NCBI GenBank assembly: GCA_963831955.1
Contig: CAWHSG010000001.1
Coordinates: 903,140 to 967,139 of the forward strand
Reading direction: 5' to 3'
From: an uncultured Acidobacteriota bacterium
Lineage (GTDB): Bacteria > Acidobacteriota > Terriglobia > Acidiferrales > UBA7541
Length of the DNA stretch: 64,000 bases
Each line of letters opens with the position of its first letter. Within the stretch, counting starts at the first letter, position 1. This document shows, in pieces, positions 841 to 63,891 of this stretch. The position numbers were made by a program, and so were the translations under genes. The notes beneath the pieces are model-generated. The model made no database searches. It saw only the letters and a program-made list of their open reading frames with translations, and was not told the origin of the DNA.

Positions 841-1184
841 CCCGCACGTAACCTACATTCCGAAATCAAGTTCGGCGCGAGCTCGTAGGCCTTTCCTTCT
901 TTCGTAGCGGTGCGCTTCAGCGCAGCAGCATTTTCACCGTAAAGCCATCGTTGAGCCATATCGTACAGGTGCCCGGGTGCCGCACGCGCCGTCTTTGCGC
1001 GTGGGAGCGGGCGCCCACGCACGCGTGTGTCCCGGAACAGCCAACAATTTCACCGTCCCCCGGGGAACTTTTCAACCGCAATCGGCATTACAGGTAGTGA
1101 GCGCCGAGTTACCGAAGCAATCGATCGACGCAAGATTACGCGGTGGATTCGTTCTAACGCTTAGGCTGCAAACAGGGCCGAAAA

Positions 1185-1848: not shown

Positions 1849-3122
1849 ATCGCACTGCACACGAAATCGAACCCGAAGAAGTAATGGCTTATCTCGACGG
1901 CGAGCTGGAAGCTTCCCGCGCGAGCGAAGTCGCCGCGCACATCGCCGCTTGCACCGAATGTGCGTCGGTCGAAGCGGATCTGCGCGCAGTTTCGAGCCAA
2001 CTCATCCAATGGCAAGTAGAAGCTGCTCCGCTGTCCCTCGCAAAATCGATTGAGCAATCGATGGCGAAGCCCCGAACGGCGGCATCCGTGAATGCGCGAG
2101 AACGTAAAGGCTCGATCGGTGCGTGGCCTCGCTTGGCTGCTCGCCAGTGGGCGTGGAAATTGGGCCTCGTCAGTGTCGCGTTATTGCTCGTCGGTGCTGT
2201 CTATATCCAGCACAGTTCCAGCCGGCACATACCGGAATTGCAGACGTTTACAGGTCTGCGCACCGCAGCTCCTACTGCGCCATCGGCCGCCAACACCGAA
2301 ATGAGCCCTGACGTGCCGACGATGCAAAAGCTTCAGGCGCAGGAACAGCTCTCGGAGAGTCTGGAAAAGGATGCCGCTCCAGATTCCGCAGCTCCCGCCG
2401 GATCTCGGACGCCAGCACCGACGCCCGGGCCGATGATTGCGCGGACGGCCTCGATGAATTTGGTGATCGGCAAGCTGGATGTGGCGCGGGCTTCACTCGA
2501 GAAACTCCTGGCGCGCCATCACGCCTTCGCGAGCGACATGACGCTCGATCAAAGCAACGATGCCTCCGCCTCGCTAAACGCCACGCTCCAAGTTCCGTCG
2601 GCAGAACTCGATGCCACGCTCAGCGATCTGCGCGCGCTCGGCCGCGTTTCGACGGAATCGCAAGGCGGCGAAGACGTGAGCGACCAACACGTAGATCTAG
2701 CCGCGCGCCTGCACAACGCCCGCGAAAGCGAAGAGCGCCTACTCGATATTCTCCGTACGCGCACAGGAAAAGTAAGCGACGTCCTCGCCGTAGAAGAGCA
2801 AATCTCGCAAACGCGCGGCGAAATCGAGCAAATGGAAGCGCAGCTGGCGAATCTTGATAAGCGCGTAAGTTACGCGTCCATCAAGCTGCAAATGGCCGAA
2901 GAATATAAAGCGCCGGCGGGAGCGAATGGATCGGTAGCGCTACGATTGCGGAACGCCATCGTCAGCGGCTATCGCGACGCGTTCGATAGCCTGCTGGCCC
3001 TCGCCGTATTCCTGCTGAGCGCGGGACCGACGCTGTTAATTTGGGCGTTCATTCTCTTCTGGCCAGCGCGGGCGATCTGGAAGCGGCGCGGCGCTTTGCG
3101 GGCGGCATTCGGAAAAAGCTAG
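1845..3122 (+). CDS. anti-sigma factor, N-terminal zf-HC2 motif with C-terminal DUF4349-like coiled-coil/TM domain
   Basis: ATGA overlap with the sigma gene. HIAACTECASV matches the H-x3-C-x2-C zf-HC2 motif. There is a central TM segment, a coiled-coil region and C-terminal hydrophobic helices. Confidence 0.7.
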   Translation: MNRTAHEIEPEEVMAYLDGELEASRASEVAAHIAACTECASVEADLRAVSSQLIQWQVEAAPLSLAKSIEQSMAKPRTAASVNARERKGSIGAWPRLAARQWAWKLGLVSVALLLVGAVYIQHSSSRHIPELQTFTGLRTAAPTAPSAANTEMSPDVPTMQKLQAQEQLSESLEKDAAPDSAAPAGSRTPAPTPGPMIARTASMNLVIGKLDVARASLEKLLARHHAFASDMTLDQSNDASASLNATLQVPSAELDATLSDLRALGRVSTESQGGEDVSDQHVDLAARLHNARESEERLLDILRTRTGKVSDVLAVEEQISQTRGEIEQMEAQLANLDKRVSYASIKLQMAEEYKAPAGANGSVALRLRNAIVSGYRDAFDSLLALAVFLLSAGPTLLIWAFILFWPARAIWKRRGALRAAFGKS

Positions 3123-3182
3123 CGGCGGCGGTAGGGCTCGTGATTCGACCCAAGTAACGATTGTGCCTGTGCTAGGCTGAAG

Positions 3183-4540
3183 AGTCTGTGTGAGAACTCG
3201 ATTTGACGCGTCTCTTATACTGCACGGGAGAGGAGACGCGATGGCTAAATTTTTGGAGTACCACCCGGACCAGGCGTATTTGTTGCCGCCGAGCGTTCGC
3301 GATGTGCTAGGGCCGAAAGCATCTGTGCTTTTACATCCGCAAGGTGCTGGCGAAGTTGAACCTGAGCGCATTCCGCGAGGAGTACGGCGTGGAGGGCGGG
3401 CCGGCGTACGCGCCGGAGTCGCTGGTGGCGGTGTGGTTGTATGCCTATGCGTTGGGCGTGACCAGTTCGCGGCGTCTGGAGCAGCGCCTTCGCGAGGATT
3501 TGGCGTTCCGCTATTTGGCGGCCGGCGCGACACCGGATCACTGGACATTGAATGATTTTCGCCGCCGGCACGCGCGAGGATTGAACGATCTGTTCACGCA
3601 AGTGGTGGAAGTGGCGCGGAAAGCAAAAATGGGGAAGCTCGGGCATGTGGCCATTGATTCGACGCGCATCGCGGCGAACGCTTCGCGGGATCGCATCGAC
3701 ACGGAGCAGAAGTTGCGGGATCAGCGGGCGCGCACGCGGCGAGCGATCCGCCGCTGGCAGAAGCAATGCGATCGGGACGATCCGAATGAGGGCGCGGGAA
3801 TGGATGTGGGCGAGGCGGTGATGGAACGGCTGGAAGAGCAGCTGGCCGCGATTCCCGAGCGGCTCGAGCGGCTGCGGAAATCGGGTTTGAAGAAGCTGTC
3901 GCGCACCGATGCGGACAGCCGGTTTTTGAAGGAGCGCGGCGGATTCAAGTTGGGCTACACGGCCACGCTGGCGGTGAGCGAAGATCATTTGATTTTGGCG
4001 CAGCGCGTGACGCAGGAGACCACCGACAACCAAGCATTGCTGCCGATGGTGGCCGAGGTGCGGCGGCAGTGCCGCCGAAAACCTAGACGCGTGAGCGCGG
4101 ACAGCGGATTTTTCTCCATCGACACGGTGAAAGCGCTGGAGCAGAAAAAAATCGACGCCTACGTTCCAGATTCGAATTTGGCGCGCTGGTTGAATCGCGG
4201 AGGACGGCTGCGGACGCGAGCGAGCGATCCGGCGCATCGCCGCATGAGGCGTAAGCTGCGCGATCCGGCGGGACAGAGAATTTACCGCCGCAGGAAAGCG
4301 ATCGTCGAACCGGTGATCGGAATACTGAAAGCGCAGCGAGGGAGGCGCGCATTCGCGCGACGCGGCCTGCCGCAGGTAGCGGTGGAGTGGGCGCTGGCGG
4401 CCACCGCCTACAATCTGACGCGTCTGTGGCACAGCAAGAAGCGCCGCGCGAAGCGCTGATCCACGGAAGGCGCAAGAAACCTGAGAGCTCATGATCGATT
4501 ACGCAAACTAAATCTGGGGCATCGAGTCTTCACACAGACT
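3183..4540 (+). mobile_element. IS element, IS5/IS1182 superfamily, copy 1 (1358 bp, frameshifted transposase)
   Basis: Imperfect terminal inverted repeats AGTCTGTGTGAGAACTCGAT / ATCGAGTCTTCACACAGACT. Flanked by direct CTGAAG at 3177..3182 and 4541..4546. Almost identical to 24326..25682 on the other strand. Confidence 0.9.
3241..4459 (+). pseudogene. transposase (DUF772 + DDE, IS1182-like) disrupted by a 1-bp insertion
   Basis: Reading is split between ORFs 3190..3555 and 3344..4459. Copy 1 has GCCGAAAGC (AAA at 3316..3318) where intact copy 2 has GCCGAAGC. Confidence 0.85.
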
Positions 4541-4648
4541 CTGAAGCCCGCCGCTACGAGGGCGGGGTCTCTCTCAATATAATTGACTTCGAAGCTACTC
4601 TCCTGTAATTCCTATCGCGCATAAGCACTCTATCGAGGATTCAACACT

Positions 4649-5542
4649 ATGCGTAATGGCGTGGCAATTGTTGCCCTGCTGTTCGGTTTCGCGGCGCCTT
4701 GCGTCTGGCCACAGGCGCTCGCGAGCGATCGCGGGACTAGCCCGCAAAGCGGCGCGGTAGCTTCAACCCAGTCGTACCCCCATTCGCCCGACGGAATGAA
4801 AGCTCAAGTCGAAAATCTTTTCGCGGCTTGGCGGACGCAAGACCCGCAGCAAATCTCAGCCGCCCTCGAACTTTTCAGCTTGCCCGACGCCGATGCCTGG
4901 TTCGCGCAAGTATTCGGAACGGACAAAGCGAAACAGTTGTCGGATGACTTCAAGAGCAGCCTGAACGGATTTCAGTCGCATATGAAATGGATTTCAGGGA
5001 ATTGGGCGTCCAAGCCCGGCGTGACAGTAAAGATCGAAACTTCCGAACTGCCGGTGCCGCCGAAATCCGGAGGCGACGAAGCCGTGCTGCCGAGCCCCAT
5101 CGCCGCGATTAAAGTCGAGAACTTTCGCTTTGACGTATCCGCGGGCGGAGACAGCGCTCCTTCGTGGGTGAATTCATTTGTGTACCGCGATGGAACTTTC
5201 CGGTCGGTCGGCGGAACGTATCCTTTTTGGCATGAAAAATTGCAGGGCATCCGGACGCGCGCCGAAGTACTAGCCACGGTGCGGCAGGTAGTGGCGATTC
5301 ACACCGTACCGGCGAAGTATCCTTCGGAGGCCAAGAAGCAGGGTATTAAAGGCGATGTGACGTTGAGCATCGTGGTCGGTGCCGATGGCAAGGCGAAAAA
5401 TATACAACTCGTGGATGGAAATCCTCTGTTGGCCAAAGCGGCGGAAGACGCCGTCAAGAAATGGAAATTCCAGCCGTATCAGATCGAGGGACATGTGCTC
5501 GAAATACCAGTCAAAGTCAAAGTGCCCGTGGTTCCGCAATGA
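4649..5542 (+). CDS. secreted protein with C-terminal TonB_C-like domain
   Basis: Signal peptide MRNGVAIVALLFGFAAPCVWPQALA. C-terminus PAKYPSEAKKQGIKGDVTLSIVVGADGKAKNIQLV...AVKKWKFQPY fits the TonB C-terminal fold pattern. Confidence 0.7.
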   Translation: MRNGVAIVALLFGFAAPCVWPQALASDRGTSPQSGAVASTQSYPHSPDGMKAQVENLFAAWRTQDPQQISAALELFSLPDADAWFAQVFGTDKAKQLSDDFKSSLNGFQSHMKWISGNWASKPGVTVKIETSELPVPPKSGGDEAVLPSPIAAIKVENFRFDVSAGGDSAPSWVNSFVYRDGTFRSVGGTYPFWHEKLQGIRTRAEVLATVRQVVAIHTVPAKYPSEAKKQGIKGDVTLSIVVGADGKAKNIQLVDGNPLLAKAAEDAVKKWKFQPYQIEGHVLEIPVKVKVPVVPQ

Positions 5543-15686: not shown

Positions 15687-15718
15687 GTAGCGCCGGCGTC
15701 CCCGCCGGCATCTTACGA
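15687..15718 (+). repeat. REP-like palindrome family A (GTAGCGCCGGCGTCCCCGCCGGCATCTTACGA)
   Basis: Starts 1 nt after the stop codon at 15684..15686. It is the inverted partner of 15829..15860. Confidence 0.8.
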
Positions 15719-18552: not shown

Positions 18553-18617
18553 GTAGGGGCGGGCCTGTGCCGTTCGGCCTTCGTTTTCGTAGCGGCGGGC
18601 TTAAGCCCGGCATCTTG
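18553..18617 (+). repeat. two adjacent GTAG-headed REP-like elements
   Basis: GTAGGGGCGGGCCTGTGCCGTTCGGCC followed by GTAGCGGCGGGCTTAAGCCCGGCATCTT. Confidence 0.55.
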
Positions 18618-18707
18618 ATGCAAGATCGCGCAAACACCTCAGATCGCCGCAAAACCGATGTCCGTTGAGTGCAGTGAGGCCAAAGGATTTACAGGGACCG
18701 TCGCACG

Positions 18708-23706: not shown

Positions 23707-24048
23707 ATGAGATCGATTTGCGCTGGGCTTCTGATCGCTTCGATGCTGCTTATTGTCCGCCCCGTATCCTCCGGCGAGCGGCTGGGCACGCTTGAAGGCA
23801 CCGTGGAGCGCGATGGCAAGCCCTTGGCGGGCGCCCGCGTGACGGCCGAGGAGTCCGAAGGCGCCCACCCTCACGCGACGCTAACGAATGACGATGGCCG
23901 CTTCTTCTTTCCTCGCTTGAAACCTGGTCTTTACAACCTGCGCGCCTACTACAAAGGAGAGTGGTCCGGCTGGGCTAAAAATGCGGAAGTTAAGGTCGGA
24001 AAAGGTACTAATGTAACCCTCCACGTCCCCGTAAGTATAACAAAATAA
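23707..24048 (+). CDS. carboxypeptidase regulatory-like domain protein (secreted)
   Basis: Signal peptide, then GTLEGTVERDGKPLAGARVTAE...TNDDGRFFFPRLKPGLYNLRAY. Confidence 0.7.
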   Translation: MRSICAGLLIASMLLIVRPVSSGERLGTLEGTVERDGKPLAGARVTAEESEGAHPHATLTNDDGRFFFPRLKPGLYNLRAYYKGEWSGWAKNAEVKVGKGTNVTLHVPVSITK

Positions 24049-24325
24049 AGAAACAGCCTTCGCAGCCAAAACAGCCTGGTACTAAGACCCCAGTACAACT
24101 TTTTTGGACCTTCCGAGCCATTGGCCGCTCCCTTTCCGTTATCTACCATCGTTTTGCGGGTTGGGAGCTGCGTTGCGGGGACGACGGTTCCGTAAGGAGC
24201 CGGGGCACGCTACCCAATCCGCCCAGCCCTCCCTGTCGGCAAACCCCTCCTGACCCCCAGCTGACAGGGGGGCATGTCTGGACGATTTCTAGGATCGTAC
24301 CGCTTTCGTAGCGGCGCGCCTTCAG

Positions 24326-25682
24326 AGTCTGTGTGAAGACTCGATGCCCCAGATTTAGTTTGCGTAATCGATCATGAGCTCTCAGGTTTCTTGCGCCTTC
24401 CGTGGATCAGCGCTTCGCGCGGCGCTTCTTGCTGTGCCACAGACGCGTCAGATTGTAGGCGGTGGCCGCCAGCGCCCACTCCACCGCTACCTGCGGCAGG
24501 CCGCGTCGCGCGAATGCGCGCCTCCCTCGCTGCGCTTTCAGTATTCCGATCACCGGTTCGACGATCGCTTTCCTGCGGCGGTAAATTCTCTGTCCCGCCG
24601 GATCGCGCAGCTTACGCCTCATGCGGCGATGCGCCGGATCGCTCGCTCGCGTCCGCAGCCGTCCTCCGCGATTCAACCAGCGCGCCAAATTCGAATCTGG
24701 AACGTAGGCGTCGATTTTTTTCTGCTCCAGTGCTTTCACCGTATCGATCGAGAAAAATCCGCTGTCCGCGCTCACGCGTCTAGGTTTTCGGCGGCACTGC
24801 CGCCGCACCTCGGCCACCATCGGCAGCAATGCTTGGTTGTCGGTGGTCTCCTGCGTCACGCGCTGCGCCAAAATCAAATGATCTTCGCTCACCGCCAGCG
24901 TGGCCGTGTAGCCCAACTTGAATCCGCCGCGCTCCTTCAAAAACCGGCTGTCCGCATCGGTGCGCGACAGCTTCTTCAAACCCGATTTCCGCAGCCGCTC
25001 GAGCCGCTCGGGAATCGCGGCCAGCTGCTCTTCCAGCCGTTCCATCACCGCCTCGCCCACATCCATTCCCGCGCCCTCATTCGGATCGTCCCGATCGCAT
25101 TGCTTCTGCCAGCGGCGGATCGCTCGCCGCGTGCGCGCCCGCTGATCCCGCAACTTCCGCTCCGTGTCGATGCGATCCCGCGAAGCGTTCGCCGCGATGC
25201 GCGTCGAATCAATGGCCACATGCCCGAGCTTCCCCATTTTTGCTTTCCGCGCCACTTCCACCACTTGCGTGAACAGATCGTTCAATCCTCGCGCGTGCCG
25301 GCGGCGAAAGTCATTCAATGTCCAGTGATCCGGTGTCGCGCCGGCCGCCAAATAGCGGAACGCCAAATCTTCGCGAAGGCGCTGCTCCAGACGCCGCGAA
25401 CTGGTCACGCCCAACGCATAGGCATACAACCACACCGCCACCAGCGACTCCGGCGCGTACGCCGGCCCGCCCTCCACGCCGTACTCCTCGCGGAATGCGC
25501 TCAGGTTCAACTTCGCCAGCACCTTGCGGATGTAAAAGCACAGATGCTTCGGCCCTAGCACATCGCGAACGCTCGGCGGCAACAAATACGCCTGGTCCGG
25601 GTGGTACTCCAAAAATTTAGCCATCGCGTCTCCTCTCCCGTGCAGTATAAGAGACGCGTCAAATCGAGTTCTCACACAGACT
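24326..25682 (-). mobile_element. IS element, IS5/IS1182 superfamily, copy 2 (1357 bp, intact)
   Basis: Same terminal repeats as copy 1. Flanked by direct CTTCAG at 24320..24325 and 25683..25688. Differs from copy 1 by the 1-bp indel and a handful of substitutions. Confidence 0.9.
24407..25624 (-). CDS. transposase, DUF772 N-terminal domain + DDE (IS1182-like)
   Basis: MAKFLEYHPDQAYLLPPSVRDVL..., YGVEGGPAYAPESLVAVWLYAYALGVTSSRRLE...PDHWTLNDFRRRH, and a C-terminal IVEPVIGILK...NLTRL. ATG 25624 is preceded by GGAGAGGAG. Confidence 0.85.
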   Translation of the reverse strand: MAKFLEYHPDQAYLLPPSVRDVLGPKHLCFYIRKVLAKLNLSAFREEYGVEGGPAYAPESLVAVWLYAYALGVTSSRRLEQRLREDLAFRYLAAGATPDHWTLNDFRRRHARGLNDLFTQVVEVARKAKMGKLGHVAIDSTRIAANASRDRIDTERKLRDQRARTRRAIRRWQKQCDRDDPNEGAGMDVGEAVMERLEEQLAAIPERLERLRKSGLKKLSRTDADSRFLKERGGFKLGYTATLAVSEDHLILAQRVTQETTDNQALLPMVAEVRRQCRRKPRRVSADSGFFSIDTVKALEQKKIDAYVPDSNLARWLNRGGRLRTRASDPAHRRMRRKLRDPAGQRIYRRRKAIVEPVIGILKAQRGRRAFARRGLPQVAVEWALAATAYNLTRLWHSKKRRAKR

Positions 25683-25813
25683 CTTCAGCCCGGCATCCGA
25701 CGAAGAAAATCTAACCTACACCAGGAATCGCGGCTGGACTCCTAGAGCAGAACACTTCCCACGATTTGACGCCCAGCTACGTTCTCGATTACGGATTTAG
25801 CATGAATTTGTAG

Positions 25814-25848
25814 TCGTAAGATGCCGGCCTGAAGGCGCGCCGCTACGA
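25814..25848 (-). repeat. REP-like palindrome family A' with CTGAAG loop (intact, uninterrupted IS target-type site)
   Basis: TCGTAAGATGCCGGCCTGAAGGCGCGCCGCTACGA. It is 31/35 identical to the site reconstructed by deleting IS copy 2. Confidence 0.8.
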
Positions 25849-25865
25849 ATGCGTTCCTAACTTTG

Positions 25866-28256
25866 TTAGAAGGACGTGCCGGCTAGGAAGATATCGCCTA
25901 GGCCTGTGGCGAAATTGGCTACGATGTTCGTTGCCGGCGAGATGAACGCTACCGTGTGGCCGTCACCGCTTACCGCCGGACGAAGCGAGACGTTGTTCGC
26001 CAGCGTTCCACCCAGCGAAATGCTTCTCAGCGACGTCCCCGGTATGCAGGAGGTGGTCGTCGAGCTCACCGCTCCCTCGCACGTATTCCGCACGAAGACA
26101 TTCTCAAATCCATTCGTGGTGCCGGGCACGAGATTCGTAGCCAACGATGCGAAAGCGATGAACTGTCCATCGCTCGAGTTCGTGACGGTCGAACTAATGC
26201 TGGGCTGCTCGCTCAATCCGTTTCCGGGCGTCACATTGTCGTTGGCAATCGATACAAGCGTCATGGAAGTAGTGCAGCCCGAGACAGCCAAGCCGCAAGT
26301 GTCGCGCACGTAGATCTGCTGGGTGCCGTCGGACGCGGTCTGCACCAGATTCGTTGCCGTGGACGCGAACGCCACGAAGCGCCCGTCTGAAGTAATCGAG
26401 GCTTGTCCGCTGGCGCCGTTCGCAGGAGTCGTGCCGTCGTTCGAGGAGGCGACCGTTACGATCTGCACGCAATCCGCGACGCCCGCGATACAGGTCGCCG
26501 TGTCGTAAATCTGCGGTGCCGGCGGCGTCACTCCGCTCACCAAGTTCGTGGCTGCTGAAGTGTAAGCCACGAACGCGCCGCTTCCCGCCGTGGCAGGCTG
26601 TGAACTCGGAGCATCCGCGGGCGTGACACCATCCGGAGATGAAACCAAAATCGTTTTTGGCGTGCAAGTCACCACGGTGGAAGTGAGATTCAAGCAGGTA
26701 TCGCGCAAATAAACCTGTGCGATACCGTTGGGGTTGACGCCGGAAATGAGATTGGTGGCCGTCGAAACGAAGGATACGTAGCGGCCATCCGGACTGATCG
26801 ATGGCTGGGTGGCGTCGGCATTTGCGGCGCTCACCCCGTCGGCAGCCACCGAGACGAGGGCTGTAGCGCTCGTGGCGCAAGTCCCGCCGCTGGTCGTCGA
26901 AGTCGCCGCGCAGCCGCTATGCAGGAAGATTTGCCGCGTGGTTCCTGTAAGGGTCGGGAAGTTCGGATCAAGATTCGTAGCGTGCGACGAGAAGGCGACG
27001 AATCCCCCGGTCGAGTCCATGGTCGGCTCGAGGCTGTCCGAATTTCCCTGCGTGCCGACCTGAGTCCCGCTGCCGGCCGTGCCGGAAATGCTGGCCAACT
27101 GCGTAGAGGGCAAGCAGGTAGCTTGGGCAAAGCAAGTATCGCGGACAAAAACATCCGGAACGCCGTTGGTATCGTCCTCGATGAGATTGCTCGAGGCCGA
27201 AGCGAACGCCACGAAGCGCCCCGTCGAGCTGATTCTGGGGCCCGAGCGGCTCAGATCGCCGATGCCGTTGTTGGCCGAAAACCCATTGAAGGAGTAATCG
27301 ACCAGGACGGGCAAGCCGGTATAGAGCAAATTGGTGGTAAGTGGCACGATGCCGTTGACCGCGAACTGCAATGGTTGGGATACTCCGCCGCCCGGGGCGG
27401 GATTCGAGATCGAGACTTGCGCCACTTGAGCGGCGCCAAGGTCCGCCTGGGTAAGAGTCGAAGTGATTGAGGAGCTGGAAGTAAACGTCGTGGGCCGTGG
27501 GCTTCCGTTGAAGAGCACCTGCGATTGCGGTACGAAGCCGGTTCCTGTGATGGTGAGTGTCGCATTATTGCCCCCCGCCGCTGCGCTGGTGGGCGCGATT
27601 TTTGTGAGCACGGGAATGGCATCGTTGATTGCCAACGGCAGCGTGCCGGTGCTGCCTCCGCCCGGAGCCGGATTCAAAACTCCAATGTTCAGCACGCCCG
27701 CCTGGATTAAGTCCGCGGCGGAGATGGTAGTCTGCAATTGCGTACCGCTAACGATCTGCGTTGAGCGGTTGTCGCCGTTCACGGTGATTTGCGAGAGCCC
27801 CTCAAAGTTGGTTCCGAAAACGTTCAGGGTAAAGCCAGTGCCGCCTGCCAGGGCGGTAGTTGGAGACATGCTGGTAATGGTAGGTGTTTCGCTCTCGATT
27901 TGTGTGATCGTGAAAATTATTTGGTTCGAGGTGCCGCCGCCGGGCGCGGGAGTCTGGACTTCGATGGTCACATCGCCGGGCGTGGAAACGAACGAGGAGG
28001 AGATATTAGCGGTCAGCGCGTTGCCGCTCTGAAAGATAGACTGGACGCCGCTGCCATTGAAAAAAATCACGGACTGGGGCGCGAATCCGTGCCCATTCAC
28101 GGTCAGCACGAATCCCGGCGAGCCCGCTGGAATGCTGGGCGGAGTCGTCGAAGCGACCGTTGGCGAGGGATTATTCGCAATGCCCTCGCCGCAGGAAGCC
28201 AGCAGCAGCGCCGCCACAAACACCAGCCGATTTTGGAGCGAACTCTTCCTTTTCAA
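25866..28256 (-). CDS. large lipoprotein with IPT/TIG-like repeats and TolB/PD40-like propeller repeats
   Basis: Lipobox LLLASCGEG. Four repeats of the type P..GGT.FTLTV.G.GF. C-terminal repeats GRFVAFAS.ATNLV...VFVRDTC. TTG start preceded by AAGGAG. Confidence 0.75.
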   Translation of the reverse strand: MKRKSSLQNRLVFVAALLLASCGEGIANNPSPTVASTTPPSIPAGSPGFVLTVNGHGFAPQSVIFFNGSGVQSIFQSGNALTANISSSFVSTPGDVTIEVQTPAPGGGTSNQIIFTITQIESETPTITSMSPTTALAGGTGFTLNVFGTNFEGLSQITVNGDNRSTQIVSGTQLQTTISAADLIQAGVLNIGVLNPAPGGGSTGTLPLAINDAIPVLTKIAPTSAAAGGNNATLTITGTGFVPQSQVLFNGSPRPTTFTSSSSITSTLTQADLGAAQVAQVSISNPAPGGGVSQPLQFAVNGIVPLTTNLLYTGLPVLVDYSFNGFSANNGIGDLSRSGPRISSTGRFVAFASASSNLIEDDTNGVPDVFVRDTCFAQATCLPSTQLASISGTAGSGTQVGTQGNSDSLEPTMDSTGGFVAFSSHATNLDPNFPTLTGTTRQIFLHSGCAATSTTSGGTCATSATALVSVAADGVSAANADATQPSISPDGRYVSFVSTATNLISGVNPNGIAQVYLRDTCLNLTSTVVTCTPKTILVSSPDGVTPADAPSSQPATAGSGAFVAYTSAATNLVSGVTPPAPQIYDTATCIAGVADCVQIVTVASSNDGTTPANGASGQASITSDGRFVAFASTATNLVQTASDGTQQIYVRDTCGLAVSGCTTSMTLVSIANDNVTPGNGLSEQPSISSTVTNSSDGQFIAFASLATNLVPGTTNGFENVFVRNTCEGAVSSTTTSCIPGTSLRSISLGGTLANNVSLRPAVSGDGHTVAFISPATNIVANFATGLGDIFLAGTSF

Positions 28257-30447: not shown

Positions 30448-30596
30448 AATGCACGGACCGTTGTAGCTGAGGGTGCTTTAGCCCTCCCCTGGAAAGCCAG
30501 CAATCCGCTTGCCCTTTTGGTTCGTCTAAGGGCACAATCGCGCGCCGTTGGGGGTTGGGACGCGTCGACGCGGTCAGAGACCACTGGGAGATTTTC

Positions 30597-36251: not shown

Positions 36252-36278
36252 CTCGGGTCTTCAGACCCGAGGTTTTTC
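36252..36278 (+). terminator. REP-like GTAG-headed hairpin with T-run between infC and rpmI (terminator/attenuator candidate)
   Basis: GTAG CTCGGGTC-TTCA-GACCCGAG GTTTTT. Confidence 0.55.
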
Positions 36279-52425: not shown

Positions 52426-52451
52426 GTAGGGGAGGGTCTTCAGACCCTCCC
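52426..52451 (+). repeat. REP-like hairpin family B, short form (GTAGGGGAGGGTCTTCAGACCCTCCC)
   Basis: 10-bp arms with a TTCA-type loop and a GTAG head. Confidence 0.75.
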
Positions 52452-52859
52452 GAATTTGGGCCCACGAACCAGCCTAGCCAAAAAACAAGCCAAGGCCCGC
52501 CGAATATAATCACAGCAATATTTTAGATCTGGAAATTACAGCGGAGGAAGTCCACTTCGCCGTGCAGTGCTAGACCCTGAACCCCACGAATAAGTGGGTG
52601 CCCTGCGCCTGCTTTCAGGCTTTCCCGTACCGGCGGAACCGGCGAGGACATGCGCAACGGCAGGACGACGGGGGCTCCCGGGGATCCAGTGTTGGTTCAA
52701 ATAGGCCGTCACACCGGCACCTGCGTCGCAGGCCGCCTCCGCGAAACATTGTAGCAGGAATCATTCGGGCGACGCTGCGATGGCGCGCCATGAGCGGAGG
52801 TATCACCCGGAGGCGGTTTTGGTGTCCGCCTCCGGGTAAATTGCCGCACCGACTCGCGG

Positions 52860-63864: not shown

Positions 63865-63891
63865 GTAGGGGAGGGTGCTTCAGACCCTCCC
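63865..63891 (+). repeat. REP-like hairpin family B, short form
   Basis: GTAGGGGAGGGTGCTTCAGACCCTCCC followed by GCTTTTCGGCC, as in the flank of the 1185 copy. Confidence 0.7.

Follow-up and report, generated by a model that had tools for sequence, protein, structure and literature searches.

An acidobacterial IS1182-family insertion sequence that probably integrates at the center of short palindromes in REP-like repeats

For some insertion sequences (IS) of the IS1182 family, palindromic targets were reported by Siguier et al. 2015, as stated by Furi et al. 2016 (PMC4923244) and Wan et al. 2017 (PMC5678879). In this family, IS1272 and TnSha1 of Staphylococcus insert into inverted repeats or hairpins in both orientations, and their targets are often terminators downstream of genes (PMC4923244, PMC5678879). 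Here, an IS of the same family is described from a 64,000-bp stretch of DNA (contig CAWHSG010000001.1; in the following, the window) of an uncultured soil Acidobacteriota bacterium, in which it is present in two copies. Comparison with relatives suggests, with a probability of roughly 0.8, that this IS integrates at the dyad center of a short palindrome, GGNC-TNNA-GNCC in the closest clade, in either orientation. Targets of this kind are a feature shared with IS1272. In contrast to the present element, however, IS1272 causes no target duplication, a part of the stem-loop is deleted upon insertion, and its targets share little primary sequence; in the present element, the center is duplicated, nothing is lost, as seen at an empty site in a sister strain (locus L121), and the closest clade has a clear sequence consensus. 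A sequence-only reading of the window had proposed an IS5/IS1182-type element with a fixed orientation in the loop of hairpins resembling repetitive extragenic palindromic (REP) sequences, and had called such targeting unusual for this superfamily. The latter does not hold, because palindrome targeting had already been stated for IS1182 members and IS1272 targets hairpins.

Insertion into REPs is known from several other IS. IS1397 and ISKpn1 (IS3 family) share with the present element a fixed insertion point in REPs, IS1397 being inserted in the loop of the palindromic units of Escherichia coli. In a survey, REP-targeting IS were listed in the IS3, IS110, IS4, IS256, and IS5 families (Tobes & Pareja 2006, PMC1525189). 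Among these, ISPsy8 (IS3 family) and ISRm22 (IS4 family) occupy the REP symmetry axis, as the present element does, with direct repeats of 3 bp and 6 bp, respectively (PMC1525189). All four of these elements differ from the present one in having transposases of unrelated families and proteobacterial hosts. In the IS110 family, all or most copies of IS621, ISPpu9, ISPpu10, and ISPa11 are found at a fixed REP position (PMC1525189), and the targets of these elements are chosen with a bridge RNA according to a preprint (bioRxiv 10.64898/2026.03.19.712850). Despite the likeness in position, their mechanism is entirely different, as these elements have a DEDD-type recombinase, no terminal inverted repeats, and repeats of 0-2 bp. 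Other DDE transposons, such as Tn10 (GCTNAGC), Tn5, and the IS5 group (YTAR), likewise combine a short palindromic consensus at the target and a fixed stagger, which is expected if the transpososome has two-fold symmetry; unlike the present element, they have no link to a family of genomic repeats. Palindromic Tn5 sites are also mentioned in the REP survey (PMC1525189). Palindrome or hairpin targeting by IS1182 members and insertion at the REP axis by IS3 and IS4 elements are already published; new here are the host phylum, the defined 12-bp target, and the duplication of the loop in an IS1182 member.

The family assignment follows from profile searches with the transposase of copy 2. The NCBIfam IS1182 equivalog model NF033551 is passed with 298.7 bits against a cut-off of 270, with ISNCY as the runner-up (66 vs 325), and all IS5 models stay under their cut-offs (IS5_4, 59 vs 140; IS5_2, 35 vs 140; IS5_1, 28 vs 275). 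Thus, of the proposed IS5/IS1182 label only the IS1182 part stands. In Pfam, the protein matches DDE_Tnp_1 (PF01609, E = 1e-17), the N-terminal DUF772 (PF05598, E = 9e-17), and DDE_Tnp_1_6 (PF13751, E = 3e-12), and it has candidate catalytic motifs at AIDST (from residue 137), SADSGF (from residue 285), and YRRRKAIVEPVIGILK (from residue 348). DDE_Tnp_1 and an N-terminal DUF772 in a single open reading frame (ORF), terminal inverted repeats, and a length of 1359 or 1360 bp are features of IS1182 elements that are all found here; the family is reportedly roughly 1.3-2 kb long. The exact 405-aa transposase is on record as P0361, on a single contig of 2,445,568 bp only.

The two copies differ by six substitutions and one indel in an end-to-end alignment (99.5% identity). 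The indel is an extra A at position 3316 of the window, which shifts the reading frame and splits the transposase of copy 1 into two ORFs (ATG at 3241, stop at 4459); copy 1 is therefore probably non-autonomous. Of the 21 bases in the terminal inverted repeats, 19 match between the two IS ends, and the repeats begin with GAGTCTGTGTGA. In the window, exactly four occurrences of the terminal motif AGTCTGTGTGARRACTCGAT are found, which form two inverted pairs; zero are expected from shuffled sequences. For comparison, relatives were collected, giving 19 genome loci, 80 metagenome loci, and 19 further loci by exact protein look-up (loci are referred to by L numbers); the named sources all belong to Terriglobia or Acidobacteriota. 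The terminus GAGTCTGTGTG is common to all collected loci and is kept among relatives with 47-95% identity. Since GAG...CTC is conserved, while the adjoining outer base changes between clades (A, C, or G), the ends of the window copies are placed as given in Table 1.

Both copies are flanked by direct repeats of the same hexamer, with the positions and the orientation that the sequence-only reading had claimed: CTGAAG at 3177-3182 and 4541-4546 for copy 1, and CTTCAG at 24320-24325 and 25683-25688 for copy 2. The outer C and G of this hexamer are the last and first bases of the IS, as in all relatives with their GAG...CTC ends, and the repeat looks like a hexamer because the IS ends with G...C and the palindrome closes with a C:G pair. 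Most likely, the duplication proper comprises the 4-nt center TGAA, judging from the conserved ends. A 6-bp duplication around an IS with AGTCTG ends is not preferred, as GAG/CTC is kept in clades whose adjoining base varies. The flanks outside the hexamer differ between copy 1 and copy 2 and thus belong to the target. The duplicated core varies among the relatives as well (TAAA, TTTA, TTCA, TGAA, TATA).

An empty site was looked for in sister strains and found for copy 1. The anti-sigma gene adjoining copy 1 has an 89%-identical homolog on the Joint Genome Institute (JGI) contig L121 of a sister strain, in which the site is contiguous where the window carries the IS (...gtgcctgtgctcggCTGAAGcccgcccctacga...). 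The sequence 3' of this gene reads gattcgacccaagtaacgatggtgcctgtgctcggCTGAAGcccgcccctacgaagg, which corresponds to the left flank of the window, a single CTGAAG, and the right flank of the window. As L121 has this uninterrupted site with one CTGAAG, the repeat is a target-site duplication and nothing was deleted upon insertion; together with the variable core, this bears out, for the core of the hexamer, the earlier claim that it is not part of the terminal inverted repeats. On the right-hand side, L121 and the window diverge after about 30 nt, so that the match there covers the REP arm only. For copy 2, the contig L119 of the same strain was rejected as an empty site, as it merely breaks inside the IS. 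A flanking tetranucleotide carried along from the donor was also set aside, as copies of a single IS within the same genome differ from each other in both flanks (L002 vs L015).

The target itself is defined by the relatives. The consensus of the closest clade, drawn from 35 unique sites, is a 12-bp palindrome, GGNC-TNNA-GNCC, which after insertion appears as GG(N)C-TNNA | IS | TNNA-G(N)CC. The central T and A are invariant, the closing C/G pair at position 1 and the G/C pair at position 3 are each present in 34 of the 35 sites, and the G/C pair at position 4 in 30. Among 83 unique sites, 57 (69%) have at least five of six complementary arm bases, compared to 2.6% of 176,273 control positions from the same loci, and perfect arms are found in 39% of these sites vs 0.2% of the controls. 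More distant relatives have different targets: the palindrome CCCTCTCCCC-(5 nt)-GGGGAGAGGG at 55-62% identity, GCCCCATGCG-TNA-CGCATGGGGC or CCGCGACCG-TNA-CGGTCGCGG at 50-53% identity, and a plain, duplicated CTAG at 35% identity.

In the window, this target coincides with the apex of REP-like repeats with the head GTAG. Removal of copy 2 and one repeat yields a 35-mer that is identical in 32 positions to the intact element at 25814-25848; the likeness seen by the sequence-only reading is thus real, while its count of 31 positions is corrected by one. The 18-mer GTAGCGGCGCGCCTTCAG is present at 24308 and at 25829-25846 with zero mismatches, with 0.17 matches expected by chance. At least 14 GTAG-headed elements with at least three stem variants are found in the window, all of them located between ORFs and most of them immediately behind a stop codon, and the motif GG.CT..AG.CC occurs six times vs 0.6 times in shuffled sequences. 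Intact members fold into stems of 5-7 bp with a 4-nt loop (z between -1.7 and -3.5); the label "REP-like" is a fair one for these repeats. The insertion point within the repeat family is fixed in both window copies (2/2), in the closest metagenomic copies (L020, L021), and in relatives with 82-87% identity (L100-L114). The window copies and ten loci on long contigs are intergenic.

Based on these comparisons, the transposase would integrate at the dyad center of a short G+C-rich palindrome and duplicate the 4-nt center, here TGAA. A two-fold symmetric transpososome would read the palindromic sequence in duplex DNA, and its cuts would be staggered by 4 bp. In the acidobacterial host, the target motif would be provided by the apex of the GTAG-headed REP-like repeats, and insertions would rarely hit genes because the repeats are intergenic and mostly follow closely upon a stop codon. 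For its own movement, copy 1 would need the transposase of copy 2 in trans. The coordinates of all features are collected in Table 1.

Table 1. Coordinates of the two IS copies, their duplications, and the REP-like repeats in the window
Feature	Position	Strand	Description
IS copy 1	3182..4541	+	1360 bp; ends placed by homology with relatives
IS copy 2	24325..25683	-	1359 bp, intact; ends GAG...CTC, placed by homology with ~100 relatives
Imperfect 21-bp terminal inverted repeats of copy 2	25663-25683 and 24325-24345		the first is transposase-proximal
Transposase gene	24407..25624	-	405 aa from ATG, single ORF in copy 2, IS1182 family
Target-site duplication of copy 1, first	3178..3181		TGAA; single-copy state seen in L121
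Target-site duplication of copy 1, second	4542..4545		TGAA
Target-site duplication of copy 2, first	24321..24324		TTCA on + strand, TGAA in transposase sense
Target-site duplication of copy 2, second	25684..25687		TTCA
GTAG-headed arm of REP-like element split by copy 2	24308..24320	+	GTAGCGGCGCGCC
Other arm of REP-like element split by copy 2	25688..25703	+	GCCCGGCATCCGACGA
Intact REP-like element, 130 bp from copy 2	25814..25848	-	just after stop codon of gene 25866-28256 (-)
GTAG-headed arm of REP-like element split by copy 1	4546..4557	-	GTAGCGGCGGGC on - strand
Degenerate second arm of copy-1 target	3165..3177	+	…GTGCTAGGC; 3 bp pair with other arm
Unoccupied REP-like element, same type	18589..18619	+	GTAGCGGCGGGC-TTAA-GCCCGGCATC; 5-bp stem, 4-nt loop
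Unoccupied REP-like element	904..934	+	GTAGCGGTGCGC-TTCA-GCGCAGCAGC

Concerning the orientation of insertion, the GTAG head lies on the same side relative to the transposase in both window copies, as noted earlier. This is the 3' side of the transposase, and the same holds for L020 and L021, the metagenomic copies closest to them, which makes 4/4, a number that is not significant. An 82%-identical IS shows both arrangements on a single 2.4-Mb contig, with the GTAG head located 3' of the transposase in L102 (gcccggcTGAA|IS|TGAAgccggccgctac) and 5' of it in L103 (GTAGCGGCGGGC-TTCA|IS|TTCA-GCCCGGCAC) and L106. L104 and L108 represent one locus in two samples, in which the IS points in opposite directions but the orientation of the loop is unchanged, which identifies the two insertions as independent. 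Both orientations are further found in L015 vs L002, and in L005 vs L006 and L007, and a count by eye of the sites with a recognizable GTAG head gives 6 vs 4. Judged from these loci, a fixed orientation, as it had been proposed, is not a property of these elements.

Several observations weigh against the proposed targeting of a 12-bp palindrome with a duplicated 4-nt center. The exact IS is present in two copies, and its exact transposase on one contig, so that the specificity of the element itself is deduced largely from its relatives. In the closest clade, a 4-bp and a 6-bp duplication are indistinguishable, and the empty site is the same in either case. There is no clean empty site for copy 2, as the sister contigs L126 and L127, whose 796-aa neighbor is 94-95% identical, lack the IS but also about 24 nt, i.e., most, of its REP. 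The reconstructed target site of copy 2 is barely palindromic beyond the closing pair, and the two reconstructed sites of the window neither adopt the expected hairpin nor fold better than shuffled sequences (z = +0.6 and -0.5). Finally, the two copies of the loop differ in 5 of 17 sites on long contigs, and mismatches are commoner in short-read contigs; in the other 12 of the 17 long-contig sites they are identical.

Mismatched loops are of different kinds. TTTA|IS|TTCA is found in L002 and L108, and TTCA|IS|TAAA in L013 and L106. L101 has TTCA|IS|TTTA, and, as its orthologs L103 and L107 have TTCA on both sides, this mismatch is a later C-to-T change. In a further series, including L013 and L106, the loop copies differ or are exact reverse complements while the arms are still complementary (L031, L115, and L117; L045, L052, L054, and L062; L072 and L079). 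Probably, the flanks of different copies were mixed in such cases, either by recombination or because short reads were assembled into chimeras across a multi-copy repeat, and a special mechanism was set aside in favor of this explanation, which is a tentative one for the long-contig loci L013 and L106. Imperfect direct repeats have also been described for 3 of 9 ISRm22 copies and were ascribed by the authors to recombination between copies (Tobes & Pareja 2006, PMC1525189).

The rival that survives best, although it is unlikely, is that the transposase is guided by structure and recognizes an extruded hairpin or cruciform, or a single-stranded hairpin. In this case, the conserved GAGTCTGTGTGA ends would be attached where stem and loop meet, on the 5' edge of every loop, and the duplication would be the loop; this corresponds to pathway c of the model proposed for IS1272. 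A loop-duplicating model has been drawn for IS1272 (PMC5678879), and the hairpins targeted by IS1272, which belongs to the same family, are little conserved in sequence (PMC4923244). Structural recognition would also fit the arms, which differ between clades and sometimes covary (GGTC/GACC, GGCC/GGCC, GTCGGAGC/GCTCCGAC), and the length of the duplication, which differs between clades although their termini are shared. Relatives with 50-53% identity have duplications of 3-5 nt (TNA and similar), those with 65-95% identity have 4 nt (TNNA), and for a 60%-identical relative from a metagenome-assembled genome with long contigs the length is 5 nt. In the closest clade, however, the complementarity at arm positions 1, 3, and 4 is what a fixed consensus predicts. 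The poor folding of the window sites speaks against a structural signal as well, and at 11 of 30 sites an untouched perfect hairpin with an 8-bp stem and a T..A tetraloop lies within at most 90 bp, whereas the palindrome occupied by the IS has a stem of 1-5 bp. Moreover, L023 and L024 resemble 5-nt loops, and the duplication still comprises 4 nt. On these comparisons, the reading of a sequence in duplex DNA appears favored over the recognition of a hairpin. For the sequence-only claim of a REP-loop-specific IS, this means that targeting of the REP palindrome center stands with the 69% of sites against 2.6% of controls, and the hairpin loop is the weak part of the claim, given the poor folding and the untouched stronger hairpins. 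The label "hairpin loop" is weakly supported for the two target sites in the window; the intact neighbor at 25814-25848, too, folds weakly into a TTCA tetraloop and not better than shuffled sequence.

Very improbable is an absence of any targeting, with random insertion and survival only in harmless intergenic repeats. It would be consistent with the intergenic position of all sites seen, but the same nucleotide of a 12-bp motif is hit in dozens of independent loci, and one and the same loop was hit independently in L104 and L108, with the IS oriented in opposite ways. Least probable of all is that the CTGAAG hexamers and the adjoining G+C-rich bases belong to the IS as extended inverted repeats, without any specificity for a target. 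In many relatives, GGGC-T..A-G and its complement indeed form an inverted repeat around the IS. However, the center differs between copies of an IS within one genome (TTTA left and TTCA right in L002 vs TAAA on both sides in L015; TGAA in L102 vs TTCA in L103), the bases outside the hexamer differ between the 99.5%-identical window copies, and the sequence occurs uninterrupted and without IS at 25814-25848, 18589, and in L121, whose empty site refutes this explanation.

With this acidobacterial example, an IS1182-family element joins the few IS for which homing to the symmetry axis of REP-like repeats is known. The targeting accounts for the intergenic position of nearly all of these IS copies, and the defined target helps to annotate IS boundaries and REP families in the poorly studied soil Acidobacteriota. 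No new kind of mechanism is revealed by this. The relatives with duplications of 3, 4, and 5 nt are suited for testing whether IS1182 transposases read a palindromic sequence or a hairpin structure. If the latter were true, they would represent the loop-duplicating branch that has so far been hypothesized for IS1272, and a series for studying how a DDE transposase measures a hairpin as opposed to a fixed stagger.

In a number of relatives (L001, L015, L087, L100, L104, L105, L108, and others), a composite repeat of about 70 nt is found. It begins with the occupied mini-palindrome cttcaGGGGC-TRAA-GCCCC, and its second part, about 20 nt away, is an 8-bp-stem hairpin, GTCGGAGC-TGAA-GCTCCGAC, which is almost never hit.

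Several stem variants of GTAG-headed hairpins coexist in the window, located at 15687, 15852, 20419, 37366, and 40723; at 36256; at 52435; at 63875; and at 30473. A variant with the loop GTCCCY is present in five copies, zero of which are occupied by the IS. The variant GTAG-GGGAGGGTC-TTCA-GACCCTCCC is of the type that flanks an 87%-identical IS in L110-L114, and a third variant is followed by a T-run and resembles an intrinsic terminator. A terminator scan of the window flagged one REP-like element, and terminator-like sites overall were no commoner than in shuffled sequences; Rfam and tRNA scans at the insertion loci gave no match. When L126 (4880-5345) and L127 (4870-5275) are compared to the window (24040-25880), L127 has, in place of the neighboring REP, a REP of another type. 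According to the differences of both contigs from the window, REPs are gained, lost, or replaced between close strains.

The surroundings of the IS copies also differ between strains. In relatives, a NLPC_P60 gene is located directly downstream of the anti-sigma gene (L122, 3790-4543, and L124, 3787-4459, vs window, 3122-4649). In L122, this gene is followed by a TonB-like gene; at this place, nothing but the REP and the IS is found in the window, and L121 has another gene. Next to copy 2, some 200 bp of intergenic DNA (24049-24290, - strand; …ATCGTCCAGACATGCCCCCCTGTCAGCTGGGGGTCAGGAGGGGTTTGCCGACAGGGAGGGCTGGGCGGATTGGGTAG…) form a block that is nearly invariant in comparison with L126 and L127, while its surroundings diverge. 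A search of this block against Rfam gave no family at the gathering score, and it may represent an undescribed non-coding RNA or a leader. Elsewhere in the window, a 6S RNA (RF00013) is found at 52545-52737 on the - strand, with 50.8 bits against a gathering score of 46.4.

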